From an uncultured delta proteobacterium (GTDB lineage: Bacteria; Desulfobacterota; Desulfuromonadia; Desulfuromonadales; BM103), in assembly GCA_963715335.1 (NCBI GenBank), contig CAVQRZ010000019.1:64001-128000 (forward strand): a stretch of DNA of 64,000 nucleotides, given 5' to 3'. A model generated the notes under the pieces. That model saw nothing but the letters and a program-made list of their open reading frames with translations, did no database searches and had not been told where the DNA came from. Position numbers and translations under genes: made by a program. This document shows positions 10,941-44,134 of the stretch, piece after piece; position 1 is the stretch's first letter; every line of letters begins with the position of its first letter.

Positions 10941-12401
10941 TTGGCCATTTCACCTTTGGGGTCGATCCGGGTCCGCCTGACGTTCTGGTATGCAATGACG
11001 CTGGCTGTCATCCTGGCAGTCAGCGCTCTGTTTTCTTATCATTATTTTTCTCACAACCTGAGAGAACAGGTGGACCGTCAGGCTCGCGAGATCGCCCGCA
11101 TCATTGACCAGCACTACGTTGACACCTTGTCCGAGGCTGTTCATTCAGGGGATTGTCAGGGCCTGCAGACGCTGGCCCACAATTACAACTGGGATGCTTT
11201 TCTGGTCTTGCGCGATGCCGGCCTGCAGGAAATCTGCAGAACAGAGAATTTGATGGAGCGTGACCTGCCGTTCGGGCCGGTGGCCCGCCAGCAGGTCCGA
11301 TGGCTGAACGAGCACCTGGAAACAATCGCGCTGGAGCCCAACCGGCAGATGAGGCTCCTCTCCTATCCCTTGTTGGAAAAGGGTAAGCTGATCGGCGTGG
11401 CCCAGATTGGCCAGGAACTCGGCCCCCTGCAGCAGACCATCGAAGAGCTGCGCGTGATCTACCTGGTGGTCGGACCCTTTGCAATTTTCTGGCTCTGTCT
11501 CGGCTGCTGGCTGTTGGCCGAACGCACGATCGCGCCGATCATCGAGGTGACCGAAGCGGCCCAGGGTATAACCGCAGACAACCTGACCCGCCGCCTGCCT
11601 TTCGGCAATCATCAGGATGAGCTGTCGCAGATGGTTGCCTGCCTGAACCAGATGCTTGATCGTCTTGAAAAATCTTTCCGGCGGATCCGGCAATTCTCCG
11701 GTGATGCCTCCCATGAGCTGCGCACGCCTCTCACCATCTTGCGGGGTGAAACCGAAGTGACCCTGCGCTGGGCGAAAACGACCGACGAGTTCCGCGATAT
11801 GCTGCGTTCCAACATGGAAGAAATCGATCGCATGGAGCGGATCATTGAAAGCCTGCTGACGCTGGCCAAGAGTGAAGTCGGTGAATTGACGCTGGAAATG
11901 AAGCAGCTCAGCCTCAGCGACATGGTCCAGGAGCTGTACCTGCAGAGCCAGCTCCTCTGCGAAACCAAGCAGATCGAAGTTAGTATGGGCCTGAAGGTCG
12001 AGGAGGAGGTCCGGATCCGCGGTGACGAACTGCGCTTGCGGCAGATGTTCCTCAACCTGATCTCCAACGCCATCAAATATACCCCTGAAGGCGGTGAGCT
12101 GAAGATCGTTCTGGCCCAGGAAGATGATTTTGCCGTGGTCGATATCGTCGACACGGGAATCGGCATGCACGCCGAGCATCTGTCCCATATCTTTGACCGA
12201 TTCTACCGGGTCGACAAGGCGCGCAACCGTATGGACGGAGGCACCGGTCTTGGCCTGGCGATTGTCAAGTGGATCGCCGAGGCCCACGGTGGAAGCATCT
12301 CGGTCACGTCCGAGGTTGGCAAGGGCAGCTCATTCTCGGTACGCCTGCCTCTAAAGGGACCGGAAGAAGGCAAACACCCGAAAACGACCATTCTGGATTA
12401 A
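10941..12401 (+). CDS. HAMP sensor histidine kinase
   Basis: two TM segments, H-box ASHELRTPL, N, G1 and G2 boxes; TTG start. Confidence 0.95.
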   Translation: MAISPLGSIRVRLTFWYAMTLAVILAVSALFSYHYFSHNLREQVDRQAREIARIIDQHYVDTLSEAVHSGDCQGLQTLAHNYNWDAFLVLRDAGLQEICRTENLMERDLPFGPVARQQVRWLNEHLETIALEPNRQMRLLSYPLLEKGKLIGVAQIGQELGPLQQTIEELRVIYLVVGPFAIFWLCLGCWLLAERTIAPIIEVTEAAQGITADNLTRRLPFGNHQDELSQMVACLNQMLDRLEKSFRRIRQFSGDASHELRTPLTILRGETEVTLRWAKTTDEFRDMLRSNMEEIDRMERIIESLLTLAKSEVGELTLEMKQLSLSDMVQELYLQSQLLCETKQIEVSMGLKVEEEVRIRGDELRLRQMFLNLISNAIKYTPEGGELKIVLAQEDDFAVVDIVDTGIGMHAEHLSHIFDRFYRVDKARNRMDGGTGLGLAIVKWIAEAHGGSISVTSEVGKGSSFSVRLPLKGPEEGKHPKTTILD

Positions 12402-12506
12402 CCTTTCACAACTGCACATTCCATCAGTTGATTACTGTGCTGCTGACGATTGACAGTGCGCACGGCGGTTATTACATTTGTTATTATAACCACGATGGAG
12501 GACATC

Positions 12507-13898
12507 ATGAACAACCTGTTACGCTCGAAACACTTCCTGCTCATATCCCTTTTGATATTCGGCTGGGCTGTCACCGTCTCGGCACAGCCGCCGGATTTTG
12601 TCACCCTGGCAGAGCAGCTCAAACCCGCAGTCGTCAACATCGGCACCGCCAAGACCGTAAAGCCCAGGGCGCCGATGCCCCCCGGCCCGCATGGCCCCGG
12701 TGGTGACATGTTCGATGAATTTTTCGAACGGTTCTTCCGCAACTCGCCACAGTCGCCGCGCAAGGAGAGATCCCTCGGCTCCGGGTTCATCATCTCTGAA
12801 GACGGCTATATCCTGACCAATGACCACGTGGTCGATGGCGCAGATGAAATCAAGGTCAAGCTCTCGGACGGCCGGGAATTCACCGGCGAGATTCGCGGAC
12901 TGGACCCGAAACTGGACCTGGCGCTGATCAAGATCGATGCCGGCGAAAACCTGCCTGTCGCAAAGCTTGGCGACAGCGAGGCAATCAAGGTTGGTGAATG
13001 GGTCATGGCGATCGGCAATCCCTTTGGCCTGGAGCAGACCGTCACGGTCGGTATTGTCTCAGCGAAGGGCCGCGTCATAGGGGCCGGGCCCTACGATGAT
13101 TTTATCCAGACGGACGCATCGATCAATCCTGGCAACTCGGGCGGCCCGCTCTTCAATGTGCAGGGTGAGGTCATCGGCATCAACACTGCGATTGTTGCCC
13201 AGGGTCAGGGGATCGGTTTCGCCATCCCGGTCAACATGGCCAAGCAGATCATCCCCCAGTTGCGTGACGAAGGTCATGTGACCCGCGGCTGGCTCGGTGT
13301 GACCGTCCAGGCGCTGAACAAGGAGCTCGCCGATTCATTTGGCCTGGACAGCACTCATGGCGCCCTGGTCAACGAAGTCATCAATGATTCCCCTGCCGAC
13401 AAGGCCGGCCTGAAGCGGGGCGATATTATCGTCGAATATGATGGCAAGCAGGTCGGTGAGCTCAATGACCTGCCGCGACTGGTTGCTGCAACCCCGGTCG
13501 GCGAAACGGTCCAGGTCAAGGTCTTCCGTGACGGCAAGGAACGCACGGTCAAGGTCCAGATCGGCAGGCTCGACGACGGCAAGGCGGAGCTGGCTGCCGA
13601 TGACGGGGAAAGCGGCGGGGCTCTCGGTCTCACGGTCGCGAATGTGACCCCGGAGCTGGTCGAGCGCTACAGCCTGGAGAGCGACAAGGGCGTTCTGATC
13701 ACCAGAATCGACCCGGAAGGCCCGGCTGCCGAAGCCAACCTGAGAGTCGGTGACCTGGTTGTCGAGGCTGACGGCAAGGAAGTCGGTACGGTCAAGGAGT
13801 TTGAAGGATTGGTTGACAAGATGGCCGCCGGCAAGGTGTTGCGGCTGCTGATTCAGCGCAGGGCGACCCTGCTCTACACGACGGTGACGTTGAAATAG
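12507..13898 (+). CDS. HtrA/DegP/DegQ periplasmic serine protease with two PDZ domains
   Basis: signal peptide, TNDHVV, GNSGGPL; GGAGG RBS before ATG 12507. Confidence 0.95.
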   Translation: MNNLLRSKHFLLISLLIFGWAVTVSAQPPDFVTLAEQLKPAVVNIGTAKTVKPRAPMPPGPHGPGGDMFDEFFERFFRNSPQSPRKERSLGSGFIISEDGYILTNDHVVDGADEIKVKLSDGREFTGEIRGLDPKLDLALIKIDAGENLPVAKLGDSEAIKVGEWVMAIGNPFGLEQTVTVGIVSAKGRVIGAGPYDDFIQTDASINPGNSGGPLFNVQGEVIGINTAIVAQGQGIGFAIPVNMAKQIIPQLRDEGHVTRGWLGVTVQALNKELADSFGLDSTHGALVNEVINDSPADKAGLKRGDIIVEYDGKQVGELNDLPRLVAATPVGETVQVKVFRDGKERTVKVQIGRLDDGKAELAADDGESGGALGLTVANVTPELVERYSLESDKGVLITRIDPEGPAAEANLRVGDLVVEADGKEVGTVKEFEGLVDKMAAGKVLRLLIQRRATLLYTTVTLK

Positions 13899-13922
13899 TT
13901 GATACTGAAATATGTTTTATCG

Positions 13923-13956
13923 AGCCCCTGCTGCGTTTTGCGGCGGGGGCTTTTTT
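13923..13956 (+). terminator. rho-independent terminator
   Basis: GC hairpin followed by T7 after the protease gene. Confidence 0.75.
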
Positions 13957-14003
13957 GTAACGCAAAGATGCAAAGGGGAAGACAAAGGGAAGGGGAAAGA
14001 GGG

Positions 14004-14037
14004 AAGAAAAGAGCCCGGCTGGATGGACCAGCCGGGC
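14004..14037 (-). terminator. rho-independent terminator of the cytochrome-porin operon
   Basis: GCCCGGCTGG/CCAGCCGGGC hairpin then U-rich tract; lies just after the proposed stop at 14075. Confidence 0.7.
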
Positions 14038-14074
14038 ATGACATAAAGAGGCAAATCTTTATCAGCTTGGTTGT

Positions 14075-16418
14075 TTAAAAGCGGTAACCGAAACCGAGAT
14101 AGCCGTAATAGGCTTCACCGTCCTCATCGCCGTAGACATAGTCTTCATCGCTGATGAATTTGTCGTAGGTGAGCGATGCCGTGGTATAGCAGCTCGGTGT
14201 GAAGTTGTAGGTGCCGCCCACGGTGACCTGGATCTGCTCATAGGACAGATCGGAGTAGCTGTCGATATTGTTGTTCTGCTCCCAGGTGTCGTAATTGATC
14301 GGTGCATATGGTCCTGGGGGCTGTGCGGATTCATTGATGGGATCCGGTCAAGGCGTCTTCCCTGAGGACTGTCGCCCTCTCGGTAAAGTCATTCCAGTCC
14401 CAGCTGTCCTTGGCGTTGTTGTAGGTGAATCCCGCATTGAGCGCGAGTTTTTCAGTGGCCTGGTAATCCATGTTCAGAGCGACGGTGTGGACATCAGATT
14501 CGTATTCAGCGGTGTTACAGATCGAGCCAAACTGGCCCGACGAGACGTCGTTCGCTCAGCCATGGTACCAGCCGACACACATCTGGTTCTCCGTCTCCTG
14601 CTTGTTGAAGGTGTAGGCCATGGTCAGGTTCAACTTGCCGTTGGGGGCGTAGTAGAGCGAGGCTCCCGGAACATAGGTGTGTTGCTCGTACTGGACCTCG
14701 TCGTTCTCTTCGTAACGAACCCTGGCGAACACGGTGGCGGCCATATTGGTCGACGGCGACCATGTGGCCGACATCTTGCCCTCGTGGACTTCATCCGGCT
14801 GGCTGGTTGATGACAGCTGGCGGTTCGGATAGACATCCGTCCAGTACCAGGTCGGTACAGTCGGTATATTGAAGTCACTGGTATTGTAGTACCATAGGTT
14901 CGGGTCCCCAGTGATGTCCTGGATTCCATCTCCTTGCGCAATACCGACATGAGCACCGGCCATTGGCTCGTCGATGTCCTGGTAGGTGTAGCTGATGTTG
15001 CCTGAGAACTCCTTGTTGATGCGCGATTTAAGCGCGAGCTTGAAGGTGTTGGTCTCTGTTTCACCCAGCTCTTCTTCGTCGCGATCAACGTCTTCGTATT
15101 CATAGCCGAAACGCAGCGTGGTCCCTCTCGCTAACCGGTAAACGATATCGAAACCGAACTCGTTGACTTCCCTTTCTTCAGCCGAGTGGTATTCGTCTGT
15201 CGCGTCTCCCGGCCAGGCAGCGGCTGCGCTGGCGGTCGCTTCGCGTGCGGGGTAGTAGATAGTGTTGCCGTCGGCATCGATGGTGTATCGGCTGCCATGC
15301 ATTGACAGGCGGAAATCGCCGATTTTGGTCGCGATCTTGCCACCGAATGACTCGTACTCAGTCTTCAGATCGTTGCCCTGCAGGAGTTCGTACTCGCCCT
15401 GAGTCGCGGACTTGGAGCTTTCCACGTCGGATTTTACGTAGCTGGCAGTAACGCTGGTGTTCTGAGGGAGATCCACTCGCGCTTTCAGCTTGTGACTGTC
15501 TTTGTCAGAGTCTGGGGTGCGCGCATAGGGGTAGTCTCCATCTTCATAAAGAAGGTTGTAAGCGGTCGGATTGCCAGCATTTTCATAATAACGAACCGGC
15601 GTGGCGCCGTCTTCCGAGAAAGTCCGCTTCAGGTATTCGTAATCGACTGTGACCGGGCCAAATTTGCCGGTTGCACCAAAAGTGTAATCTTCCGTGCTCT
15701 CATCAATTTTCTTGCCGCCTGCAGAGACATGACAGGTGTCACACTTGGTTACGCCGATGGCCTGCTCAAGACCTTCGCGGGTTTCGATCCGCATGCCGGT
15801 ATGGAAGGTTACGTTGGGAAGATTCGGCAGGGTCAGGTCGGCTTCGCTCTTCAGCTCCCGGCGGGTCACGATGTAATTGTTGTCCAGCTCCTGCTGATAG
15901 GCTTCGGCGGCATCATAATTAATCGTGCCTCCGCCGACGTCTGTTGGCAACCCTGCCTCGTCCAACTCGGCAAAGAGCTTGTCCGTCATGACGGAGGGCT
16001 GGCCTCCAGCTGTATCGTTTCTACCAGTTGCCCCCATCTGATCAAGGGTCTCGTGGTCCTTCCAGTGTTCCAGGACCTGGTAGTCGACACCCAACCGGAA
16101 AATCCGGTTCAGGTCCAGGTCCAGGTTGTATTGCTGGTCCCGGGGGCCGTTGATGTCGGCATCAAGATCGAGTTCGGAGTTTTCTCCGAACTTTCCTTCA
16201 AGGGAAACTTTCGGTGCAAAGCTGAGGCCGTCATCGGACCTGCCGTTTGCATATTCATTGACGCGTGCGGGGTTATCCTTGGTGTCCATACCTGAAACAC
16301 CGATCTCCACTTGTCCGCTGAAAGCCTTGTCTTCAGCGACAGCTGCGGTGGTGATCGTCATTAAGGTAAGGACGGACAACACAGCAAGCAGCCATTTATG
16401 GCATCTCTTCATGTTCAT
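14075..16418 (-). CDS. MtrB/PioB-like outer-membrane beta-barrel with CXXCH; probable selenoprotein (UGA 14556-14558), with an additional +1 frameshift at 14334-14347
   Basis: signal peptide; CDTCH; beta-strand pattern continues past UGA (ANDVSSGQFGSICNTAEYESDVHTVALNMDYQ...); the shifted frame ends in GYLGFGYRF*; resembles the GSU2204-type family as recalled. Confidence 0.8.
14521..14558 (-). promoter_or_regulatory. putative bacterial SECIS element
   Basis: GUCGGGCC-AGUUU-GGCUCGAU hairpin; loop starts 22 nt after UGA and contains GU. Confidence 0.7.
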
Positions 16419-16428
16419 CCTCCTTAAG

Positions 16429-17406
16429 TTAACGTGTCAGACCGCCACCATTGAGCGGTTGCGATGGGTAATCGCTGCCGTGAACAACCTTGTGACAGGT
16501 TGTGCACTTGGTACCGAACGAAGTCTGGAAGCCTTCACTGCCATGCGCTGCGTTGACGACGGCTGCAGCATCGATTCGAGCTTGCGGTTGTTGTGGTCCA
16601 TTAATGCGTTCAAAATTCGCTTCGCGCAAAAGATGGAAGTGGCCTTCGTGGCACTGCAGGCAGAGGAACGGTTCGTTCTGCACCAGCAGGTTGTTGGCTA
16701 CTGAACCATGTGCGTCATGGCAGATGGTGCAGTCGTCTTCAACCGGCGCATGGCCGAATACGAACGGACCCTGGTAACGGCTGTGGCAATTCAGGCACAG
16801 ATCGGTGGTGCGCTCGTCGGTGTTGAGTTCGCCGTGTGGGTTGTGGCAATCGCCGCAGGTCATCTTGCCTTCCTTGATCGGATGATGGGAAGGGAAGCTG
16901 GCCTTGGCCATCTGCTCCTGGTGGCAGCTGTAGCAGAGCTCCGGGTCCTGCTGCTTCAGGGCGGTCTTGTTGCCGCCGTGAATCGAGTGACAGTCGTTGC
17001 AGCCCACGTCGCTCAGGGCGTGCTCGCTGTGTGTCCAGTCCATCAGCTTGCCGTCGGTGTGACACTTGGCGCAAACCGCTGCCGATTCTTCGGGCAGAAG
17101 CTCACCGAATTTGAGGATCTTGTCGCCGTCCGAGTCGACATGCAGGCTGCCGCCGCCATGGCAGGCTTCGCACCCTGCGGTGCCGCCCATATACTCGAAG
17201 CCGGACAGGCGCGAGTGAACCCCTGCGCCCTTACCTTCGTGACACTCCAGGCAGGCTTCTGAGCCGACTGAAGTAGCGCCCTCGATGACTGGTAACGTCA
17301 ACTGCTTCTCCCTGATTGCTCCGGTGGCGCATGCCGCCAAAAGCAGTAACAGGGGAAGGAGTTTGACCAGCCAGGACGCCCTGGATAGTGATACCTTCCT
17401 GTGCAT
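16429..17406 (-). CDS. decaheme c-type cytochrome lipoprotein (MtrA/DmsE-like)
   Basis: 10 CXXCH motifs counted; lipobox LLAAC; AGGAG RBS before ATG 17406. Confidence 0.95.
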   Translation of the reverse strand: MHRKVSLSRASWLVKLLPLLLLLAACATGAIREKQLTLPVIEGATSVGSEACLECHEGKGAGVHSRLSGFEYMGGTAGCEACHGGGSLHVDSDGDKILKFGELLPEESAAVCAKCHTDGKLMDWTHSEHALSDVGCNDCHSIHGGNKTALKQQDPELCYSCHQEQMAKASFPSHHPIKEGKMTCGDCHNPHGELNTDERTTDLCLNCHSRYQGPFVFGHAPVEDDCTICHDAHGSVANNLLVQNEPFLCLQCHEGHFHLLREANFERINGPQQPQARIDAAAVVNAAHGSEGFQTSFGTKCTTCHKVVHGSDYPSQPLNGGGLTR

Positions 17407-17596
17407 GATTTCTCCTTTCCGTGCTGAATGCCTCAATAAATGAGATGTAAACAAATGCTGTACCGGTTTGGTCCGAGCCTGACGGCTTTGTTCGGTGGCC
17501 GGTAAAGCGCCAAAAATACCCGTTTAGACATTCGGAATCGGTTGAATCATAAAGCCCTTTAATGCTAGGGTAAAACGAATCATTTTAATGCCTCTT

Positions 17597-17611
17597 ATAA
17601 GTAATATTTAT
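17597..17611. promoter_or_regulatory. LysR-type binding box
   Basis: ATAA-N7-TTAT dyad (T-N11-A) in the AT-rich divergent promoter region. Confidence 0.6.
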
Positions 17612-17640
17612 AGTTTTTAATGATATATATGGATGTGTGA

Positions 17641-18576
17641 ATGGAAACGCGGTACCTGAACACTCTGATCGCTGCTGTTGAAACGGGAACCTTTTCCAGG
17701 GCCGCGGAATCATTACACATTACCCAGTCTGCCGTTTCCCAGCGGATAAAGTTCCTGGAGGAGCATTTCGGTCAGCAATTGCTCGACCGGTCCGGCCAGC
17801 GACTGGCATTGACCGCGGCCGGGCAGCTGGTTTTCAACAAGGCCAGGGACATCCTGGAAAAAGAGCGGGAACTTTTGGCCTGCCTGCACGATAATGCAAC
17901 CCAGAAGCACCTCTCCCTGTGTTGCACACCGACCTTCGGTATGGCCTACCTGCCCCAGGTGCTGAGTAATTTTCTCAGAGCGCATTCCGATCTGAGCGAT
18001 CTCAAATTCATCTTCCTCCAACCGGAAGAGGCTCTGCGCGGGTTGCGCCAGGAAGAGTTTGACCTTGCGGTCATCGAACATAGCCTGGATCTCAAATTCG
18101 CCGGCTTCAACCGGTTCTCGATGCCGGATGACGAGATGCTGGTGGTCACTTCCGCTGCTGCAGCAATCCCGAATGACAACGGTGTAGTGGAGCTCTCGGC
18201 ATTGAAAGGAAGTCGCCTTTACGCGCGACGCGACGGCTGCAGCTCAAAGGAGCTGATGCGCTGCAACCTCAGGGCGCAAGGCTTTGACTTCAACGATTTT
18301 GCCAGTGTCGTGATCTCCGATGATCTGCGCTTTACCCTCCAGTCGGTCCTTGCCGGCGAAGGGATTGCTTATGTGTCCCAGGCCCTGGTCAGCAATTACC
18401 TGGAGTCAGGGCAGATGATCGGCTTGCATGTCGCCGGTTTCGGGCGCCGACGGGGGCGCAGCGTCGTGATGCTGCCGCATAGAGGTGAAGATCCTTTGGT
18501 CAAGGAGTTCCTGGAGAGTCTCTTCGAAGTGGTTTCGCCTTTCTGGCGGCCGAAAATGGTGAGTGCGGCAGGTTAA
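17641..18576 (+). CDS. LysR-family transcriptional regulator
   Basis: HTH FSRAAESLHITQSAVSQRI; divergent from the cytochrome operon. Confidence 0.95.
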   Translation: METRYLNTLIAAVETGTFSRAAESLHITQSAVSQRIKFLEEHFGQQLLDRSGQRLALTAAGQLVFNKARDILEKERELLACLHDNATQKHLSLCCTPTFGMAYLPQVLSNFLRAHSDLSDLKFIFLQPEEALRGLRQEEFDLAVIEHSLDLKFAGFNRFSMPDDEMLVVTSAAAAIPNDNGVVELSALKGSRLYARRDGCSSKELMRCNLRAQGFDFNDFASVVISDDLRFTLQSVLAGEGIAYVSQALVSNYLESGQMIGLHVAGFGRRRGRSVVMLPHRGEDPLVKEFLESLFEVVSPFWRPKMVSAAG

Positions 18577-18636
18577 ATACCCTCCGCGCCACCGACTTCA
18601 GCCGCGACTGAAGCTTTGCATGTTTCAAGGAGTTTT

Positions 18637-19278
18637 ATGGAAAAGCTGTTCAGGGGGATTGCCAAGTTTCGGCGTGAGGATTTTGAATCGCACCGGAAGC
18701 TGTTCCAGACTTTGGGCCGCAAACAGCAGCCGCACACCCTGTTTATCGGTTGCTCCGATTCCCGTGTCGTTCCAGAACTGATCACGCGTACCCGGCCCGG
18801 TGAGCTTTTTATGATCCGGAACGTTGCCAACATCGTGCCGCCGTTCCGCAAAACCGAAGATTTTGCCGGGACGACCTCGGCGATCGAATATGCCGTTCAG
18901 GTCTTGAATGTAGAGGCGATCGTGGTCTGTGGCCACTCGAACTGTGGGGGCTGCGCTGCGATGCACCAGAGCCCTGAGGCGCTGCAGCATATTCCGAATG
19001 TGGCGCGCTGGCTTAATGTCTCCAGCGAGGTGAAAGAGCGGGTTAGAAAACAGGTCGTAGAGGGGACGCCGGAAGAGCAAGAATGGCTTACTGAGCAGAT
19101 CAATATCCTGGTGCAGATGCGCAACCTGCTGAGTTATCCTTATATCCGCGAGCGCTATGATAAAGGCGAAATCGAGATTCTCGGCTGGTATTACATTATT
19201 GAGACCGGCGAAATTTTCAACTTCAATGATCGCACCGAAACCTTCGAGTTGATTTCCACTCCGGCGGAAGGGCCCTGA
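18637..19278 (+). CDS. beta-class carbonic anhydrase
   Basis: CSDSR, RNVAN and HSNCGG zinc ligands. Confidence 0.95.
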   Translation: MEKLFRGIAKFRREDFESHRKLFQTLGRKQQPHTLFIGCSDSRVVPELITRTRPGELFMIRNVANIVPPFRKTEDFAGTTSAIEYAVQVLNVEAIVVCGHSNCGGCAAMHQSPEALQHIPNVARWLNVSSEVKERVRKQVVEGTPEEQEWLTEQINILVQMRNLLSYPYIRERYDKGEIEILGWYYIIETGEIFNFNDRTETFELISTPAEGP

Positions 19279-19296
19279 CCCGGCTGCACGCCAGCA

Positions 19297-19599
19297 TTAT
19301 TCCCCCTCCGCCCTGCCGCTCCAGAGTGGATCCCAGCCAAACTGCCGGCGCAGACGTTCTCCCGGGTTCTGCTCTAAAAACTCCGCCTCGCTGAAACAAT
19401 AACGGTAACCCGCACAATAGGTTGTGAGGATCGTGTAGGCGTCATTGATTTTGCGGATCAATGCCGGGTCGGCGGCGTCGCTCTGGTCGGGGTGGTGCCT
19501 TTTGACCAGTTCGCGATGACGCTGCTTGATCTGCTCGAGGGTCGCGCGCTCAGTGATGCCAAACGTCTCAAGAGCGGCTTCAAGTTCCTGGTAAGTCAT
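19297..19599 (-). CDS. small J-domain (DnaJ-like) protein
   Basis: HHPD motif and INDAY helix. Confidence 0.85.
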   Translation of the reverse strand: MTYQELEAALETFGITERATLEQIKQRHRELVKRHHPDQSDAADPALIRKINDAYTILTTYCAGYRYCFSEAEFLEQNPGERLRRQFGWDPLWSGRAEGE

Positions 19600-19875
19600 T
19601 AGAGTGTCCCATAGCTGAGTCGCGGTAATGCCTGTGTTTTTTGAAAGGGCCACTGGATTTCAAGGTTGAAGCGATCCCTGGGCCAGCGGGCTTTTTTTAG
19701 CACGAGGGCTGGAAATGGTGTCCGGTAACACCTATGATAATCCAAGGTTCTCGTCTAGTACAATATTCAGGACAACTGTATCAACTTTTGGATCGTTGTC
19801 AGAAGTTGTGCGGTATCAACAAAGCCACCCCAAGAGGATTCCTTTAATCTTCATCCGTTGCCTATGCCCATAAAA

Positions 19876-20433
19876 TTATTGACTTGTGACTTGAAAAGAC
19901 TGAACGACCTCCTCGTAGGTCGGCAGGTCTCGCGGGTAATAGTGGAGGCTGGTCCCGTAATATTTGATCAGATAAACCTGCTTCTCGGTAGCGAATCCGC
20001 TGATAATCCCTTCGTAATCCAGACCCTTGGATGTTTCATACTTGATGTGAAGACGAAAGCCCTGGTGTCCTGCAATCAGGACTGGGGTGTTCTGTAACAG
20101 GGTCACCCGACTCGCCGGGAGCTCGTTTTTAACCAGCGCCAAGGCCAGTTCCGCCAGTTCTGACGGAAGCATGTCTAAGGTTATTTTTTTGTTGATGGCT
20201 GCAAAGGCATCATCGTGGCTACCTTCTTGAATTTCAATACCTTGCAGCATAGGGCCGTCGTGAGAGATAAACAGTTCCTTGTTATTGGATGTGTTGTGCA
20301 TCCAACCCGCAGGCAGTTTAACCTGGTAACTCTTTCCCGAAGCTATCTGGGATTCAGGAATAACTTTCCAGGGTGGGGCGCAGGCGACCAAACCCAGGGT
20401 CAGACAACAACATATCAGGAAATAACGTTTCAT
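19876..20433 (-). CDS. hypothetical lipoprotein
   Basis: lipobox LVAC; RBS present. Confidence 0.8.
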   Translation of the reverse strand: MKRYFLICCCLTLGLVACAPPWKVIPESQIASGKSYQVKLPAGWMHNTSNNKELFISHDGPMLQGIEIQEGSHDDAFAAINKKITLDMLPSELAELALALVKNELPASRVTLLQNTPVLIAGHQGFRLHIKYETSKGLDYEGIISGFATEKQVYLIKYYGTSLHYYPRDLPTYEEVVQSFQVTSQ

Positions 20434-20590
20434 GATCCTTCCCCTTTATCAAGTGCCTCAATGTAGTGATTGATATACTCCCTGTCGATGGCGTCTGGGT
20501 CTCGTTGCAGGTAGGTCTCCAAGAGGCAAGGAACATGAACAGGATCAGCAGGGAACCTTTCAGATGCCCAGAGCGAAGATGCCGTTTCAT
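20430..20590 (-). pseudogene. internally deleted gene remnant (signal peptide fused out of frame to a TPR-like C-terminus)
   Basis: ATGA overlaps at both ends; N-terminus MKRHLRSGHLKGSLLILFMFLAS; other frame LETYLQRDPDAIDREYINHYIEAL...*. Confidence 0.55.
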
Positions 20591-21315
20591 TTGCCGCTGT
20601 AGCCTTCCATCGCTTTAGCAAACAGCGTGCTGGCGTCTTCAGGTTTTCGGAGATCGAGGTTCCCTTGGGCGAAGCTGTGCTGGAACCACAGGATATCTCC
20701 ATCTTCGAGATCCACCACGCCAACCAGAACCTTTGACGATCCTAGCGGCATACCGACTCCTGCCAACGCGGCTATGGCGATCATGGTTTTTCGTCCTCCG
20801 GTTGAAATACTGTCGTACCCGATGACGATTAGGGCCGCTTCGGCGCCCGACTTCTGCTTCAGAAAACGCAGCCCGTTGCCCAGGGAATAATGAAAATCAT
20901 CAGCAAGGTGGCTCCAGCCGTAGGCCGGTACGTTCGCTGCAATATAGGCTTGGCTGGCAACGACATCGTAAAGGAGGACATGTTCGTGGACCAGTTCCTT
21001 CTCCTCATCGGTCAATTCAGGTACAGTCTGAAGCGACGTGGCCCCCTGCTTGGCAAAGAACCCATTTACAGCGAGAGTCATGGCTGACTCCCCTTGCTTG
21101 CTCCATGTCGGGTCCTCCTGAACCACCCCTCCAGCAGAAATCTCGTTAATGGACACCGAGACTGGCAAAACCAGCAACTTGTTGGGCAGAGACGCCGAGC
21201 CTTTTCTGATGTCTGAACCCACGGACGGTTTCCCGGCCATGGTGCAGGCGGTCAATGGGAAGAGAAGGACAACAACGACAAAGAGAAAGAAGGGCATTCT
21301 GTGGCATGGCTCCAT
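20587..21315 (-). CDS. hypothetical lipoprotein
   Basis: lipobox LTAC; AGGAGG RBS. Confidence 0.8.
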   Translation of the reverse strand: MEPCHRMPFFLFVVVVLLFPLTACTMAGKPSVGSDIRKGSASLPNKLLVLPVSVSINEISAGGVVQEDPTWSKQGESAMTLAVNGFFAKQGATSLQTVPELTDEEKELVHEHVLLYDVVASQAYIAANVPAYGWSHLADDFHYSLGNGLRFLKQKSGAEAALIVIGYDSISTGGRKTMIAIAALAGVGMPLGSSKVLVGVVDLEDGDILWFQHSFAQGNLDLRKPEDASTLFAKAMEGYSGK

Positions 21316-21529
21316 GATATCCTCCTGGCGGAAAACCTCTATAAATCTTTTATATGTCCTGCCTTATAGGTTGCCAACCATGCTGTCCGAAATTTAAATA
21401 GACTGGGCAATACACGGGAGAAGTAACGTAAATTCCCCGAGCATCAGAGTTTAGATGCTTAAGCCATGAATTAAAAAAACCACTGGTCAGTACAATGCTG
21501 ACAACAGGGGGTAATTAAGTAATCTTCTG

Positions 21530-21635
21530 ATCGCATCAAGGGCCACTCGCTCACGTGATGCCGAAAACCTTGAGAGCGGCCTCAAGTTGCTGGTAAGTCA
21601 TACGAGAGTTCCATAGCCGAGTCGCAGTAATGCCT
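21530..21635 (-). pseudogene. degenerate 5' fragment of a J-domain gene paralogous to 19297-19599
   Basis: ATG 21601 gives MTYQQLEAALKVFGIT* versus MTYQELEAALETFGITE; upstream 25 nt match 23/25. Confidence 0.8.
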
Positions 21636-21840
21636 TCGTGATTATTTTAAAATGTTAAATTAACATGCTGTGCATAAGGAAAGCCACTTTCTGGAGCTCG
21701 GACCCTCGATTTCCCCGGACGTCTTGCCCGTTGCCCGGCAGGCTTTCAGAAGCTATTCCCTTGCGCGGAGCAAGGGCCATATGATAAAAAATTCAGGTTT
21801 GGATTGCTAATATTTTTGCTTGTTTCGAAGGTGTCTGATC

Positions 21841-22908
21841 ATGGAACTCCAAGTTTTGCCGCTGGAACAGAAAAAACCGCTGATCAAAGACGAATCACAA
21901 TTACATTTCGGCAAACAGTTTACCGACCGGATGTTCGTCATGAAGTACAAGACCGGTCTGGGGTGGTATGATGCCAAGATTCAGCCTTACCAGGCGTTCT
22001 CGCTCGATCCTGCCGCCATGGTGCTGCATTACGCCCAGGAGATTTTCGAGGGACTCAAGGCGTTCCGGCGGCCCGATGGCCAGATAGCACTGTTCCGCCC
22101 GCAGGACAACTTTCGCCGCTTCAATCATGGTGCGCGGCGGATGTGCATGCCCGAGGTCGATGAAGCTTTCATGCTGAAGTCCCTGAAAGAGCTGATCCGG
22201 CTCGAAGCTGAGTGGGTACCGCACAGCGAGGGGACCAGCCTGTATATCCGGCCGGCCATGATCGCCTCCGAGCCGATGCTCGGTGTGCGGGCTGCTGATG
22301 AGTACCTGTGCTTCATCATCCTCTGTCCGGTCGGGACCTATTACAAGGGTGGTCTGGCGCCGGTCAAGATCTGGATCTCCGATCACTACGTCCGCGCTGC
22401 TCATGGCGGCACGGGGGAAGTCAAGACCGGGGGTAATTACGCGGCCAGCCTCTTTGCTGCGCGCGAAGCGGCGGCAAAAGGGTATGACCAGGTCCTCTGG
22501 CTGGATGCCAGAGAGAAAAAATATGTAGAAGAGGTCGGCAGTATGAACATCTGCTTCGTCGAAAAAAATAAGCTGGTGACCTCGCCCCTGCATGGCACGA
22601 TCCTGGATGGCATCACGCGCCGCTCGGTCCTGGAACTGGCACGCTACAACGGGCTGGAAATCGAGGAGCGTGCTATGTCGGTCGATGAAATTTTTACCGG
22701 GGTGGAGGAGGGTCGCATCCTGGAGGCCTTTGGTACCGGCACGGCAGTGGTCATCTCGCCGGTTGGCCAGTTCACCTACAAGGACCGCACTGTCGTGCTG
22801 GGCGATGGCAAGACCACCGGTGCGGTTACGCAAGAGCTCTATGACACCCTGACCGGGATTCAATACGGGCGTTTGCCTGACCCCCACGGTTGGGTCGAAC
22901 TGCTCTGA
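21841..22908 (+). CDS. ilvE: branched-chain amino acid aminotransferase
   Basis: LHYAQEIFEGLKA, YIRP, KTGGNY, ILDGITR, GTAVVISP. Confidence 0.95.
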   Translation: MELQVLPLEQKKPLIKDESQLHFGKQFTDRMFVMKYKTGLGWYDAKIQPYQAFSLDPAAMVLHYAQEIFEGLKAFRRPDGQIALFRPQDNFRRFNHGARRMCMPEVDEAFMLKSLKELIRLEAEWVPHSEGTSLYIRPAMIASEPMLGVRAADEYLCFIILCPVGTYYKGGLAPVKIWISDHYVRAAHGGTGEVKTGGNYAASLFAAREAAAKGYDQVLWLDAREKKYVEEVGSMNICFVEKNKLVTSPLHGTILDGITRRSVLELARYNGLEIEERAMSVDEIFTGVEEGRILEAFGTGTAVVISPVGQFTYKDRTVVLGDGKTTGAVTQELYDTLTGIQYGRLPDPHGWVELL

Positions 22909-24881: not shown

Positions 24882-27332
24882 TCAAACGGCAAAATATTTT
24901 GCCTGCGGATGGTGGGCAATAATCGCCGAGGTGCTCACCTCTGGAACCATCTCCATCGTCTCGGTCAGGGTCACCCCGATCACTTCCGGTTGAAGTAATT
25001 TAAAGAGCATTTCATGGGCATCAAGATCGGGGCAGGCCGGATAACCGAAGCCGTAACGTGACCCCTGGTAGCCCTGAGTAACGTAGCCGGTCATATCCGT
25101 GGGCTTGTCCCTGGCTATGCCGAGTTCACGACGCATTTCTTCGTGCCAGTATTCAGCCAGGGCATCGGTCACCTCGACGCTGAAGCCGTGTAGCATCAGG
25201 TAATCGTGGTAGGCGTCTGCCTCGAACAGGCGTTTGGTTTCAATTGCGATACGGTCACCAATCGTCACGACAAAGAAAGCGGCGACATCACCCCCCTCAT
25301 CGCGACTGCGGTAGTAATCGGCTATACAGAGATGCGGTGGCGACAGCTGTCGCGGGAACGCGAAAGCCATGACCTCATCGCCGGCTTCAACAAAGACCGT
25401 GTCCCCCTCGCTGTAACAGCGGAAGTACCCGTAGGCCGCCTTCGGCTGCAGCAACCCTTCTTCGATGGCACGTACTTTGAGCTGTTCGTACAGCGGGCTG
25501 ACTGTCGTCCGCATCAGCTCGGCATAGTCCTCTGCAGTGGAACTGGAGGTGCGACGGTAGCCCCAGCGCCCGCGGAACAGCGCCTGTTCGTTGACATATG
25601 AGAAGAGCCTGGCCGGGTCGATATCGACCACGTGACGCAGTCCGTAAAAAGGTGGCTCCGGCACCGGGTGGCTGTGATCGATATTGACGTCCTTTACTCC
25701 CGGTTTCATGCGAGGCTTGCCACCCTTCGGTATGGCAGCAGTGGCGGTCAGTTGCCCGGCCTCGAAATCTTTCAGTGCCTTGAGCCCGGCGAAGGCATCC
25801 GCACAGTAAACCACCGGCGCATCATAATTCGGTACACAGGCGGTGGCGACGAAATCACTGGTAAGAGCAGCGCCACCGAGCAGGATCGGTATCTTGAGCC
25901 CCGCTTCCCGGTATTGCGGCATACTCTCCTGCATGACAATCGCCGACTTCACCAGCAGACCCGAGAGCCCAATCATATCCACATTCAGCTCGCGGGCCTT
26001 GGCGATAATCGTCTCGGCCGGTACCTTGATACCGATGTTGAAGACCTTGTAGCCATTGTTGGAAAGCAGGATATCAACCAGGTTTTTGCCGATATCGTGC
26101 ACATCACCCTGGACCGTGGCCAGCAGGATCTTGGTCCCCTCCTCATGGTCGACCTTCTGCATATGCGGCTCAAGCCAGGCGACGCTCTTCTTCATCGCCT
26201 CGGCCGATTGCAGCACGAAAGGGAGCAGCAGTTCACCCTTGCCGAACAGCTCGCCGACGTGGCGCATCGCCGGCACCAGGATCTGGTTGACGATATCGAG
26301 CGGCGGGTAACGGTCGAGCAGCACCGCCAGAATATCCTCGATGCCGTCCTTGTCGCCGCGCACGATCTTTTCGTGTAAAGCCTGCTCGGGGCGTTTGACC
26401 TCCGATTCTTCCTCATCGCCGCCGTCAACACGCTCGGAGAAATGGTCGATGAAACGCATCAGCGGCGATTTCTCCGCACCCTGGTCGCGGTTGTACATCA
26501 GGTCACGGCAGAAGCCCCGATCCTCTTCGCTGATCTGTGCCAGCGGCAGGATCTTGCCGGCGTCGATAATCGCCGCATCAAGGCCCGCTTCAACCGCCTC
26601 GTGCAGAAACACGGAATTGAGGATCTTCCGCGCAGCAGGGGGCAGGCCGAAGGAAATATTGCTCAATCCTAGCAGCGTATAGACGCCGGGCAATTCCGCC
26701 TTGATGCGCCTGATTCCGTCCAGGGTCTGGATCGCGGCATCGAGCAGGTTCTCATCACCGGCGCCGATAGTAAAGGTAAGGGGATCAAAGAGGATGTCCT
26801 GAGGTCGCAGGCCGTGTTTGCCGACCGCCAGGTCGTAAATCTGCCGGGCCGTTTCAACCTTCTCATCGGCAGTCATGGCCATACCCTGCTCATTGATGGT
26901 CAAAGCCACTACTGCCGCACCGTACTTCTTCGCCAACCGGCAAACCCGATCGAGGGTCTTGCCACCATCTTCCAGGTTGATCGAGTTGATGATGCAGCGA
27001 CCGGGATAGATTTTCAGACAGGCCTCTACGCAGTCGGCGTTGGTTGAATCAATCATGATCGGAATCTTCAACGACTCGGCGTGAAGTTTAACCAGGCGGG
27101 TCAGGTCGGCAAGCTCGTCGCGACCGACATAAGCGGCACAGATGTCAAGAACCTGGGCGCCTTTGGCTTCCTGGTCCAGTCCGATCCGCAGACAGCCATC
27201 AAAATCATCGGCCAACAGAGATTCGCGGAATTTTTTCGAGCCGTTCGGATTGGACCGCTCGCCGATCAACAGCGGCGGGATTTCCTGGGCGATTTCTACG
27301 GCCTGATAGAGGCTTGAGAGAGAAGGTTTCAT
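24882..27332 (-). CDS. metH: B12-dependent methionine synthase: pterin, cap, cobalamin-binding and reactivation domains
   Basis: IGERSNPNGSKKF, GDVHDIGKN, SGLL, GYPACPD. Confidence 0.92.
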   Translation of the reverse strand: MKPSLSSLYQAVEIAQEIPPLLIGERSNPNGSKKFRESLLADDFDGCLRIGLDQEAKGAQVLDICAAYVGRDELADLTRLVKLHAESLKIPIMIDSTNADCVEACLKIYPGRCIINSINLEDGGKTLDRVCRLAKKYGAAVVALTINEQGMAMTADEKVETARQIYDLAVGKHGLRPQDILFDPLTFTIGAGDENLLDAAIQTLDGIRRIKAELPGVYTLLGLSNISFGLPPAARKILNSVFLHEAVEAGLDAAIIDAGKILPLAQISEEDRGFCRDLMYNRDQGAEKSPLMRFIDHFSERVDGGDEEESEVKRPEQALHEKIVRGDKDGIEDILAVLLDRYPPLDIVNQILVPAMRHVGELFGKGELLLPFVLQSAEAMKKSVAWLEPHMQKVDHEEGTKILLATVQGDVHDIGKNLVDILLSNNGYKVFNIGIKVPAETIIAKARELNVDMIGLSGLLVKSAIVMQESMPQYREAGLKIPILLGGAALTSDFVATACVPNYDAPVVYCADAFAGLKALKDFEAGQLTATAAIPKGGKPRMKPGVKDVNIDHSHPVPEPPFYGLRHVVDIDPARLFSYVNEQALFRGRWGYRRTSSSTAEDYAELMRTTVSPLYEQLKVRAIEEGLLQPKAAYGYFRCYSEGDTVFVEAGDEVMAFAFPRQLSPPHLCIADYYRSRDEGGDVAAFFVVTIGDRIAIETKRLFEADAYHDYLMLHGFSVEVTDALAEYWHEEMRRELGIARDKPTDMTGYVTQGYQGSRYGFGYPACPDLDAHEMLFKLLQPEVIGVTLTETMEMVPEVSTSAIIAHHPQAKYFAV

Positions 27333-28252
27333 AACGTCACCTGCCGTGCCGCAGGGGTCAAGCCGGAGCAGGCCGCCGCGAGTTGGCGGATATGTCCAGG
27401 GGTCGTGCCACAACAGCCGCCGATGATGCTGACACCATCCTGTTCGACAAACGAGGTCATGTGATGAACAAAATCAGCGGGTGTCAACGGGTAGTGGGTT
27501 TTGCCATCCACCACTTCGGGCAGGCCCTGATTCGGCATGCAGGAGATGCGATAGGGCCAGTTATGGCTTAGATAGCGGATATGCGAAGCCATGTCGCTCG
27601 GCCCGGTCGCACAGTTGAGACCGAGGGAGAAGACCGGGAACGGCTCCAGTGTAGCGCAGATGGCCGCTATGTCGCTGCCGACCAGCATGGTCCCCTGACG
27701 CTCCATCGTCACCGAGACCAGCACCGGGATCTCTTTGCCGGTCTCTGCGAGGACTTCGAAGCAGGCCACCAGGGCTGTCTTAACCTGCAGCAGGTCCTGG
27801 CAGGTTTCAATCGCAAGGGCATCAACTCCAGCTTCGACCAGGGCGCGTATCTGCTCCGCCAGGGACCGGGACAACTCCTCCACCGAAATATGCCCCAGCG
27901 ACGGCAGCTTAGTGGTCGGTCCAACCGAACCGGCAATGTAACGACCGGTTCGACCGCCGATCGCGGTGCGGGCGTTGGCAACGGCAGCACGATTGATTTC
28001 GACTACCTTGTCACCAAGATCGTATTCGGCGAGGACAATCGAACTGGCCCCGAAGGTGTTGGTTTCCACAACCATCGCCCCGGCATCGAGAAACGATCCG
28101 TGCAGGGCAACGATCGTATCCGGGGCAGTCAGGTTAAGCAGCTCATTGCACCCTTCACATCCCTGCCATGCTTGATCAGGTATCTGCATCTCCTGCAGGT
28201 TGGTGCCGCAGGCACCGTCGAACAGGAGGACTTTCTCATCACCAAAACTCAT
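27329..28252 (-). CDS. metH: homocysteine S-methyltransferase domain of split methionine synthase
   Basis: DGACGT, ETNTF, GLNC, GGCCGTTP; 4-nt overlap with the downstream half. Confidence 0.92.
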   Translation of the reverse strand: MSFGDEKVLLFDGACGTNLQEMQIPDQAWQGCEGCNELLNLTAPDTIVALHGSFLDAGAMVVETNTFGASSIVLAEYDLGDKVVEINRAAVANARTAIGGRTGRYIAGSVGPTTKLPSLGHISVEELSRSLAEQIRALVEAGVDALAIETCQDLLQVKTALVACFEVLAETGKEIPVLVSVTMERQGTMLVGSDIAAICATLEPFPVFSLGLNCATGPSDMASHIRYLSHNWPYRISCMPNQGLPEVVDGKTHYPLTPADFVHHMTSFVEQDGVSIIGGCCGTTPGHIRQLAAACSGLTPAARQVTL

Positions 28253-28365
28253 AACGTGACCATATCCTTGCAAATTAATCGTACGCTTTGACTTCTTTCA
28301 ATTACATTCCAACAAACAGGGCGAACCCGATGGCCCGCCCCGGCAGGTTGCTCAGCTGCAAAAGC

Positions 28366-41537: not shown

Positions 41538-42635
41538 TCAGCCCCCCGTCTTTCTGGCATTGGCCACCTGCAATGGTACTTCTGCGGGCAGCTGCTGCTG
41601 GACATTGACGTAGGTGTAGGTCTCCCCCAGGTAATTTTTCAAAATAACCTCGTTGCCGAGACTCTGCAGGTAGTCCGGCAGGATTGGAATCTTGCCGCCG
41701 CCGCCGGGGGCATCGATGACGTAGGCTGGCACGCCTAAACCCGAGGTGTGGCCACGCAGGGCACGGATGATCTCGATCCCTTCCTCGACGCTGGTCCGGA
41801 AGTGGTCGGTCCCCTGGACCATGTCGGCCTGATAGATGTAGTAAGGGCGGACACGGATGGCAAGGAGCCTCTGCATCAGACGTTTCATCACTACCGGGTC
41901 GTCATTGACACCGCGCAGCAGGACAGTCTGGTTGCCGAGCGGGATGCCGGCATCGGCCAGGCGGGCGCAGGCCTTGGCCGAGGTCTCGGTAATCTCGTCC
42001 GGGTGGTTGAAGTGGGTATTGAGATAGATCGGCTGGTGCTTGCGCAACACGCGGATCAGCCCCATGGTGATGCGCTGCGGCAGGACCACGGGAATGCGGC
42101 TGCCGATGCGGATGATCTCTATGTGCGGGATGGCGCGCAATTCCGTCAATATCCAGTCAAGTTTTTCGTCTGCGAGCAGCAGCGGGTCGCCGCCGGAGAC
42201 GATGACGTCGCGGATCTCCTGGTGCTCACGTAGATAAGCGAGACCGCGCTCGAGGGTATCGCGGTTGATCAGCATGTTCTCGCCACCGACCTTGCGCTTG
42301 CGGGTGCAGAAGCGGCAGTACATGGCACATTCGGAGCAGACCAGGAACAGGGCCCGGTCCGGGTAACGGTGCACCAGGTTGGGCACCGGGCTCTGGTTTT
42401 CCTCCTCGAGCGGGTCGGCATAACAGACCGAATCGTGGACCTCTTTTTCAGAAGGGACCGCCTGCCGCCAGATCGGATCGTCAACTTCCTTGATCAGTCC
42501 CAGGTAATATGGGTTGACCCGCATCGGGTACTGTTCGGCAACCTCTTCGAGGGGCTGCGGGTCGATGCCGTACTTGCGAGTCAAATCGCCTGGTTTGGTG
42601 GTGCTTGCTTGCAGAAGTTTCTGCCATGTTTCCAT
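41538..42635 (-). CDS. KamA-family radical SAM/PLP aminomutase (lysine 2,3-aminomutase-like)
   Basis: HRYPDR, CAMYCRFCTRKR, SGGDPL, HFNHP, DAPGGGGK. Confidence 0.93.
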   Translation of the reverse strand: METWQKLLQASTTKPGDLTRKYGIDPQPLEEVAEQYPMRVNPYYLGLIKEVDDPIWRQAVPSEKEVHDSVCYADPLEEENQSPVPNLVHRYPDRALFLVCSECAMYCRFCTRKRKVGGENMLINRDTLERGLAYLREHQEIRDVIVSGGDPLLLADEKLDWILTELRAIPHIEIIRIGSRIPVVLPQRITMGLIRVLRKHQPIYLNTHFNHPDEITETSAKACARLADAGIPLGNQTVLLRGVNDDPVVMKRLMQRLLAIRVRPYYIYQADMVQGTDHFRTSVEEGIEIIRALRGHTSGLGVPAYVIDAPGGGGKIPILPDYLQSLGNEVILKNYLGETYTYVNVQQQLPAEVPLQVANARKTGG

Positions 42636-42660
42636 TGCCGGGATTCTCCTTTGTCTGCGA

Positions 42661-43125
42661 TCAGAAGCGTTTGACGTAGGTTAGGCGGTCGTCGCCGGGC
42701 TTGTAGAAGTCGCGGATGCACGATTCTTCGATGTAGCCCGCCTTTTCATAAAACGACCTGGTTCGCAGGTAGCCTCCCTGCGAAGAGGTCTCCAGGCAGA
42801 GCAGCCGGCCGCCGCGCTTGATCACCTGGTCTTCGACATGCTTCATCAGCCGCCGGCCGACGCCGCTCCCCTGAGTGCCGGGGTCGACGGCGATCCAGTA
42901 AAGGTCGTAATTCCCCTCGGTCATTGGCACCGGCCCAAACAACACGTAGCCGGCAACGCGGTCGCCGATATCCGCCACGGCCACCTCGTAGTCCTGCTGG
43001 AGAGGATCGTTGGCGACCGTTTCCAGAAGTTCAACGGCAACAGTCACCTCGGCATCCGTGAAGGCGCCGGTGGCAATCAGGATCTCCTCCAGCATGGGGA
43101 TGTCATCGTGTCTCAGTTTGCGCAT
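42661..43125 (-). CDS. GNAT N-acetyltransferase
   Basis: WIAVDPGTQGSGVG (motif A), ETSS, FYEKAGY. Confidence 0.9.
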   Translation of the reverse strand: MRKLRHDDIPMLEEILIATGAFTDAEVTVAVELLETVANDPLQQDYEVAVADIGDRVAGYVLFGPVPMTEGNYDLYWIAVDPGTQGSGVGRRLMKHVEDQVIKRGGRLLCLETSSQGGYLRTRSFYEKAGYIEESCIRDFYKPGDDRLTYVKRF

Positions 43126-43135
43126 GTCAGTAGCC

Positions 43136-44134
43136 TCATTTTTTTCGCTTGCTGGCAATTGCCAGGATTCGGTCAATCAGTTGTGGATAGCTTAGGTCGG
43201 CCTCGCGGGCGCTGCGGGCCAGCCCTGCCTCGGGGCTGATGTCCGGGTTGGCGTTGACTTCCAGAATGTAGGGGATGCCGTCGCGCAAGCGAAAATCGAC
43301 CCGCGCGTAGTCGCGGCATTCGAGGAGTTTGTAGGCCCGTAGTGCGACGTCGCGCAACAGCATCTCAGTTCGCATTTTGAGCGATGCCGGACAGACCGGC
43401 TCGGTCAGCTTGTACTGCTGGGACTGCTCGAGCCATTTCCCCTCGTAGCTGACAATCGGCTGGGCCAGGTCAGGGTGAAATTTGATTTCAGAGAGCGGCA
43501 GCACGTCATGAGGCCCGTTGCCGATAATGGCCGCATTGATTTCGCGGCCCTCGATAAACTCTTCGACCAGGGCTCCCTGACGGTAGGTCCGATGTACATA
43601 GTCGATGCGGTCGAGCAGCTTTTTCTCATTGCTGACCACGCTTTCGTTGGAGATCCCCTGCGAGGCATCTTCCCAGCGGGGTTTGACGATCAGGGGATAG
43701 ACCATTTCCTTGACTCGCGAATAATGCTCGCCGAGCTTGACCAGGCAGTATTTGGGGGTCGGCAGTTGATGCTTCGAGAGCAGGTCCTTGGTGCGGGCCT
43801 TATCCTGGGTCAACCCGAGGGAAAGCGGAGGGGCTCCTGTGTAGGTGATGCCGAGCAGATCGAAGAGTGCAGCGACGTGCATCTCCTTGCGGCTGTCGCC
43901 CCAGAAAGCTTCACAGAGATTGAATGCGATGTCGGGGTGCAGGCGACGCAGCTCGGCGGCGAAAGCGGCAACATCTTCGCCCAGGGCGATCAGCTCAGGC
44001 TTGTGGCCAAGCTTGGTCAAGGCGGCAGCAACCGAGCGTGCTTCGTGCTCAGCGCCCTGTTCGGCGATGCGGTCAATCGCTTCACCTCGGCCGGTTCCGG
44101 GAGGAACGAGGTTATAACATACGGCGACGTTCAC
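43136..44134 (-). CDS. ATP-grasp ligase, D-Ala-D-Ala ligase-like (copy 2)
   Basis: GAGGAG RBS and GTG at 44134; YTGA..L...DK, IVKP, VEEFIEGRE, ARVDFR, EVNANPD. Confidence 0.88.
   Translation of the reverse strand: MNVAVCYNLVPPGTGRGEAIDRIAEQGAEHEARSVAAALTKLGHKPELIALGEDVAAFAAELRRLHPDIAFNLCEAFWGDSRKEMHVAALFDLLGITYTGAPPLSLGLTQDKARTKDLLSKHQLPTPKYCLVKLGEHYSRVKEMVYPLIVKPRWEDASQGISNESVVSNEKKLLDRIDYVHRTYRQGALVEEFIEGREINAAIIGNGPHDVLPLSEIKFHPDLAQPIVSYEGKWLEQSQQYKLTEPVCPASLKMRTEMLLRDVALRAYKLLECRDYARVDFRLRDGIPYILEVNANPDISPEAGLARSAREADLSYPQLIDRILAIASKRKK

Follow-up and report, generated by a model that had tools for sequence, protein, structure and literature searches.

An OmcKL-type porin-cytochrome locus with a heme motif and a probable selenocysteine codon in its barrel gene, from an uncultured Desulfuromonadales bacterium

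Introduction

What would an outer-membrane barrel do with a heme-attachment motif of its own and a selenocysteine (Sec) in the same chain? The question is raised by a porin gene that follows a decaheme cytochrome gene in a 64,000-nucleotide (nt) stretch of DNA, here called the window (positions 64,001 to 128,000 of contig CAVQRZ010000019.1, assembly GCA_963715335.1), from an uncultured delta proteobacterium of the Desulfuromonadales. An earlier interpretation made from the letters and open reading frames (ORFs) alone, the sequence-only reading, took the in-frame UGA at 14556-14558 for a Sec codon and the gene pair for an extracellular electron conduit with a Sec/Cys redox site. We find that the locus adds a member, probably broken by error, to a catalogued, uncharacterized family known from the GSU2203/GSU2204 (OmcKL) pair of Geobacter sulfurreducens. 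Its UGA is very likely read as Sec, and the heme motif and Sec may, more tentatively, share one site at the cell surface.

Evidence that the UGA is recoded

The porin ORF runs on the minus strand from 16418 to 14559 and closes at TGA 14558-14556, where the sequence-only reading had placed its end. Residues are counted from ATG 16418, which makes the UGA codon U621, and the true start is probably ATG 16412 rather than ATG 16418, as favored by the spacing from the ribosome-binding site and by homolog starts. The part of the gene up to and including the UGA (14556..16418, minus strand) encodes a signal peptide followed by the greater part of an MtrB-type barrel. It scores 645.2 bits against NF041027 (cut-off 350) over model positions 2-580 of 580, the end of the model coinciding exactly with the UGA; this is the GSU2204 family, which bears out the pointer to a Geobacter (seleno)protein family in the sequence-only reading. 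The porin also matches PF11854 (score 62, cut-off 23; E 5e-17), it stays below the TIGR03509 cut-off (45.7 vs 240), and an ESM Atlas query returned MtrB/PioB clusters only, with a low recognition value. Judged by its sequence, the porin is one that would work like MtrB without being a TIGR03509 member.

Of 401 genomes from the class, 86 carry a family member that scores above cut-off, as do 37 of 401 from the phylum, and the relatives include Desulfuromonadales and Geobacteraceae; Desulfuromusa kysingii (L171) has TGA at the site. Gene callers truncate the family at the UGA in most records: 101 of 149 representatives (50% identity) end at the Gly preceding the site, and these are presumed UGA truncations, the DNA having been inspected for the fetched genomes. 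Our class-level set comprises 86 loci (the window's own included, one duplicate dropped), and 84 of them span the site, with TGA in 76 and Cys (TGC or TGT) in 8, the Cys-type loci having been chosen for their open frames. The stop at this position is TGA in all 76, never TAA or TAG, and of the 75 TGA loci besides the window's own, 74 stay open for another 137-164 codons up to a terminal Phe, the remaining one being cut by a contig end. Among the named loci, TGA was found in 54 of 64, the other 10 being unmatched by the pattern or cut short, and Cys occupies the Sec column also in representatives P0050, P0057 and P0088. Homologs continue past the codon, and the alternative in the closest paralogs is Cys, as expected if the UGA is recoded.

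The genome (100% complete, 6.9% contaminated) carries two selA copies, selB, a selD that itself contains a UGA, and the tRNA-Sec gene selC, that is, the whole set for which the sequence-only reading had suggested looking, and the selU that it had noted lies at 59306-60370 of the window. Of the 107 genomes listed as carrying the family, 80 were searched for selB, which is present in 75 of them and in 61 of the 63 of high quality. A quick tree (51 hand-picked rows, midpoint-rooted) has Sec scattered over many deep branches, with the Desulfuromonas Cys clade nested among them. Two Cys-type paralogs, L127 and L129, each have a single in-frame TGA, where relatives have Arg and Trp; these are probably nonsense mutations, and both genomes also hold a Sec-type copy.

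Bacterial selenocysteine insertion sequence (SECIS) elements are hairpins that closely follow the UGA on its 3' side and carry a G near the start of the loop. The hairpin here (14521..14541, minus strand) has a stem spanning +15 to +35 past the UGA and a 3-nt loop with G at +24. The hairpin reported by the sequence-only reading is therefore real and of bacterial SECIS geometry, while the 22 nt that it gave as the distance to the start of the hairpin is the distance to the loop, the stem beginning at +15. In an alignment of 36 SECIS regions, 94.8% of the cells in the 8-pair stem are paired, with 24 double-sided changes; this pairing was reached by 0 of 500 shuffles, a test that is inflated by kinship, and slid controls gave 17-59%. 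With synonymous recoding as the control, z falls below -1.64 for 55 of the 60 distinct Sec sequences (mean z -2.8) and for 1 of the 8 Cys-type ones, four loci with indels being left out. The signal is weaker in the phylum-level loci (mean z -1.6; 15 of 32 below -1.64), in which the lowest-energy fold mostly keeps its loop near +23/+24. For the single sequence the stability is modest (z -2.58 over 36 nt, -1.03 over 54 nt and +0.62 over 79 nt). We also observe in-frame insertions of 9-10 codons directly past the UGA in L023, L071 and L095; those of L023 and L071 form a new hairpin at about the SECIS distance, and the best hairpin of L095 lies further out.

A putative MtrAB-type conduit with a heme motif in its barrel

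The gene before the porin (16429..17406, minus strand) encodes ten CxxCH motifs and a lipobox, in agreement with the ten-heme lipoprotein of the sequence-only reading, and belongs to the GSU2203/OmcK family (NF041028, 435 bits, cut-off 325) and to the MtrA/DmsE type (TIGR03508, 217, cut-off 192). It matches the MtrA chain 6R2Q_A over residues 45-317, all ten motifs included (E 2.5e-42), and the porin profile matches the MtrB chain 6R2Q_B (E 1e-6), which supports the claim of an MtrAB-type pair. When the N-terminal porin alignment was searched against the PDB, no match was obtained at E 10. The decaheme gene lies directly upstream of the porin in 48 of 48 loci, with the strict lipobox pattern in the decahemes of 74 of 93 loci, and no co-directional third cytochrome occurs in any of the 48 within the flanks fetched. 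A two-gene MtrAB-type conduit lacking MtrC is suggested by this arrangement. In Desulfobacterota mtrC can lie away from mtrAB (PMC12133095).

MtrB has 26 strands, and in MtrAB the C-terminal heme of MtrA faces outside and contacts MtrC (PMC7198977). By eye, counting back from the terminal Phe on periodicity and the indel profile, we likewise obtain 26 strands for the porin; automatic segmentation gives 35 pieces rather than a clean 26. On this count, strands 7 and 8 would be joined by a hairpin with the CxxCH motif at its tip, and strands 21 and 22 by one that bears Sec, the two hairpins being long, extracellular and on opposite walls. The Sec/SECIS peptide forms a 13-residue loop extension relative to MtrB. 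The two hairpins are nearly free of indels (111 rows), whereas the other outer loops vary.

The heme motif that the sequence-only reading had seen in the barrel stands at residues 226-230 (15729..15743, minus strand), where heme attachment is predicted. It is the only CxxCH of the porin and is invariant in 77 of 77 full-length homologs, and it occurs in 91 of the 92 region-covering representatives that end at the Sec site. Since only 53 of 101 site-ending representatives have the first of the two flanking cysteines (Cys at -7; 48 have no Cys in the 12 preceding residues), Sec travels with the heme motif and not with a cysteine triad. By sequence, porins with a heme motif extend beyond the selenoprotein family. 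MtrB-like porins with CxxCH in the same hairpin and no Cys or Sec at the site are P0124, P0127, P0129, P0132, P0135, P0138, P0140, P0144, P0151, P0152, L126, L128 and L130-L132, and some of them carry His or Met near the site.

A proposed shared heme-selenocysteine site or an electron relay

With respect to function, we propose that the OmcKL (GSU2203/GSU2204) pair is a conduit with a reactive outer end, the conservation of UGA and SECIS hairpin in the barrel gene making its translation with Sec very likely. By homology, the lipid-anchored decaheme would probably fill the barrel as MtrA fills MtrB, its hemes 1 to 10 running from the periplasm to the surface. By strand counting, the CxxCH and Sec hairpins could reach from opposite walls and meet over heme 10, which is the MtrC docking place in Shewanella. 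The predicted barrel heme and Sec would there form one cell-surface redox site, in which Sec may ligate the heme iron or occupy its distal pocket and make or break the S-S bonds of polysulfide or elemental sulfur (S0). The Sec-heme step is drawn from co-occurrence and from analogy with MccSep and with His/Cys hemes: in MccSep, a Sec beside a His/Cys heme reduces polysulfide, and the same paper states the outer-membrane step of S0 respiration as open (PMC13510729). MccSep is found in 38 of 86 porin-positive and 59 of 315 porin-negative genomes, counts that are uncorrected for kinship. We give a shared site acting on sulfur species slightly less than an even chance. A bolder version, in which the barrel itself is the enzyme, we consider rather unlikely: a natural His/Sec-ligated c-type heme between two extracellular hairpins would cap the decaheme wire, making the family a widespread, mis-annotated surface sulfur reductase or oxidase in Desulfobacterota and, in G. 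sulfurreducens, an extra outer-membrane conduit that stood outside the five-conduit deletion study.

Several observations weigh against a sulfur-active heme-Sec site. Deletion of MccSep cripples S0 respiration (PMC13510729), and OmcKL is therefore no substitute for MccSep; moreover, MccSep is missing from 48 of the 86 porin-positive genomes, the present one included. The association of Sec with the heme motif fails in the converse direction: most full-length representatives have CxxCH, yet just 3 of these 24 carry a Cys at the Sec position, so that the heme needs no such residue, and the conserved His115 and His119 (L026 numbering) are alternative ligands. Mutual information with average product correction (248 rows, effective number of sequences 168) is dominated by invariant columns and is uninformative on contact between the two hairpins. 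Finally, GSU2203 and GSU2204 are upregulated 1.5-2.7-fold on the conductive iron oxides hematite and magnetite (PMC4070692), and OmcKL is highly expressed, 4-fold over OetABI, in HotSeep-1 living in consortia with its anaerobic methanotrophic archaeal (ANME) partner (PMC10553843). These expression data point to electron exchange rather than to sulfur.

Such data would suit a second account, which we hold to be possible though less likely than the shared site, namely that the conduit is the same and its eleventh heme only relays electrons to or from minerals, nanowires or partner cells, with the Sec (elsewhere Cys, His, Met or nothing) tuning its potential and no sulfur chemistry taking place. 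It would also accommodate the many CxxCH porins that lack Cys and Sec, some with His or Met nearby, and the electrode activity that is left in G. sulfurreducens lacking its five other conduits (PMC6148476). That strain has nonetheless lost metal reduction although omcKL, which lies outside the deleted clusters, was not deleted, and, provided that omcKL is intact and expressed in it, OmcKL alone did not serve as a metal conduit there; the string 'GSU22' does not occur in the text of PMC6148476. A costly Sec that is the commonest state over many deep branches, with the Cys clade nested within, would also be better explained by catalysis than by tuning.

A frameshift in this copy

The sequence-only reading had the frame continuing for 74 codons past the UGA. 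It does so, to TGA 14333-14331, but this end point is absent from intact homologs, and the frame stops there because of a frameshift near 14345 (14341..14350, minus strand), in what the strand count places as the most indel-rich extracellular loop. From the UGA to TAA 14075 there are 484 nt (1 mod 3), whereas the same distance is 477-483 nt (0 mod 3) in all 7 intact homologs, so that the last barrel strands and the terminal Phe sit in another frame than the UGA. This shifted 3' part (14075..14347, minus strand), which ends with TAA (14075), shows 88-94% identity to the C-terminal ends that L026 and L049, its closest homologs, encode in frame. A second Sec at TGA 14333 and a programmed frameshift were both ruled out, no homolog having a stop or a shift there. 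Just past the TAA lies a terminator-like hairpin (14013..14037, minus strand) with a 10-bp stem of 9 G-C pairs, a consensus match only.

We regard the frameshift as probably an assembly error. The assembly has such indels elsewhere: selA on contig C6 (149700-149800) is frameshifted near its 5' end and its duplicate on C40 (6600-6700) is intact, 5 of 153 genes in the assembly are frameshifted, and the second-strain porin allele on C20 has several frameshifts. The contigs of three relatives across the break are all in frame (+5, +5 and -4 nt), and the CxxCH motif, the UGA, the SECIS hairpin and both flanks are undecayed. The alternative is that the frameshift is real and this copy a recent pseudogene without its last strands and C-terminal assembly signal, a reading compatible with any of the functional mechanisms. 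In its favor, and against an assembly error, the break stands in the assembly, none of the 40 genes tested on the window's own contig is frameshifted, and no same-strain reads that would settle the matter were found, the sequencing runs holding at most 26% of the words, that is, relatives only. The contig carries a second gene of MtrB type, likewise spread over three frames; this could mean decay of the conduits but fits an error as well. On balance a true pseudogene seems unlikely. The split metH (24882-28273) was tried as a further assembly error and ruled out, as the two-gene split is common to 6 relatives and thus natural.

The second-strain copy lies at C20:13070-15030 (corresponding to window 14075-16030). 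Its flanks show about 96% DNA identity (95.7% over the 8.3-kb match), its porin allele has only 55-76% protein identity, and about 100 nt around the UGA and SECIS are nearly identical. Exchange of alleles, or selection for diversity in the surface loops, is suggested by this pattern.

The flanking cysteines

The Sec hairpin (14517..14579, minus strand) is bounded by Cys614 (14577-14579) and Cys634 (14517-14519). The C-x6-U-x12-C arrangement that the sequence-only reading had pointed out is thus present, and it is invariant in the class, both cysteines occurring in 76 of 76 class-level TGA loci and in none of the 8 Cys-type paralogs. It is no part of the family core: among 32 phylum-level Sec loci, the first Cys is found in 21, the second in 1, both in 0 and neither in 10. 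The idea that Sec cycles with these cysteines as a selenylsulfide or disulfide redox site apart from the heme draws on their invariance in the class, on their joint loss in the Cys-type paralogs and on the retention of the second Cys despite the in-frame insertions of L023, L071 and L095. As a general feature such a triad is not supported, being absent from all 32 phylum-level Sec loci and all 8 Cys-type paralogs, with nearly half of the site-ending representatives lacking the upstream Cys altogether, and we think this account improbable. The two positions appear to oppose one another across the hairpin, which would suit a structural disulfide, and Cys614/Cys634 are likely a clade-specific disulfide clamp.

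That the UGA is an ordinary stop, leaving a 620-residue barrel or a protein split in two, is hardly tenable: public gene callers do end the protein at the preceding Gly, no Rfam match was obtained in window 12000-22000 and experimental proof of recoding was not found in the literature, but the codon is TGA without exception among the 76 stop-bearing loci, paralogs have Cys at the same column, the stem covaries, and the open frame downstream encodes the C-terminal strands and the terminal Phe.

Neighboring genes

A divergent LysR-type regulator of the multiheme-cytochrome-associated kind (17641..18576, plus strand; NF041036, 385 bits vs 210) stands upstream of the decaheme gene, where the sequence-only reading had put it. 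Of the 40 Sec-type loci compared, 36 have it in this divergent upstream position, against none of the 8 Cys-type loci; in L039, L040, L042 and L043, which are Cys-type, its place is taken by a divergently oriented gene whose product has about 357 residues and two CxxCH motifs. Beyond LysR lies a beta-carbonic anhydrase gene (18637-19278), an order shared by 9 of 48 related loci. Just outside the window, at C19:130020-133255, lies the second MtrAB-like pair, in which the cytochrome has nine CxxCH and one CxxxCH motifs and the porin is spread over three overlapping frames. Elsewhere in the window, 41538-47205 holds a KamA-family radical S-adenosylmethionine gene, two D-Ala-D-Ala ligase-like genes and a gene for a 581-residue protein with no NCBIfam match at 1e-20.

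Comparison with known systems

The family is odd in being a selenoprotein barrel with its own heme motif. As it is already catalogued, the present locus alone adds little; what we contribute is the demotion of the cysteine triad, the reading of OmcK as MtrA-like and a testable geometry, and G. sulfurreducens GSU2203-2204 makes the proposal directly testable. Should heme and Sec indeed act as one surface site, catalytic conduits of this kind would be new, and the heme might be naturally ligated by Sec, something of which our literature search found no case. Full-text literature searches, with subscription papers and supplements outside their scope, returned no experiment on Sec or heme in GSU2204. 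Table 1 of PMC13188914 has the GSU2204 family among the selenoproteins, with one Sec, and PMC9312934 also lists it as a selenoprotein; the main text of PMC2398784 is silent on it, though both reviews, which date from 2022 and 2026, cite that paper as the source, and the main texts of PMC12013277, bioRxiv 2025.11.06.686851 and PMC12545173 do not mention it. The pair has been named the OmcKL conduit in PMC10553843, and omcK fills one table row in PMC13194489. In PMC10553843 OmcK is treated as an extracellular cytochrome without a periplasmic partner, and the word 'selenocysteine' does not occur; here, in contrast, OmcK is MtrA-like.

MccSep/ExtKL of Geobacter sulfurreducens (NF040886) resembles the porin in combining Sec with a c-type heme and in its overlapping hosts, and its Asp-Gly-Sec (PMC13510729) is comparable to the Asp at -2 in 61 of 101 porin representatives. 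It differs in being a soluble periplasmic pentaheme protein of another family, with a Cys ligand and Sec beside it (PMC13510729). The present genome has no MccSep above the NF040886 cut-off; two pentaheme proteins (C9:56007-57389 and C33:8304-9743) show weak, below-cut-off similarity to MccSep/ExtKL and have no internal stop.

All three genes of the NF041027/NF041028/NF041036 set are present here above the curated cut-offs and in the same arrangement; the NF041027 model stops at the UGA, and the present copy differs in being frameshifted past the Sec loop. Cyc2, a fused cytochrome-porin, likewise has one CxxCH in an outer-membrane barrel, but its heme domain is N-terminal and it is not known to have a decaheme partner or Sec; no Cyc2 model was matched in our profile searches. 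The closest architectural parallel is MtrAB of Shewanella (6R2Q), with the same order of decaheme and barrel, matches to both chains and 26 strands, from which the present pair differs in the CxxCH motif, Sec and loop extension of its barrel, in the lipobox of its decaheme and in having no MtrC in the operon.

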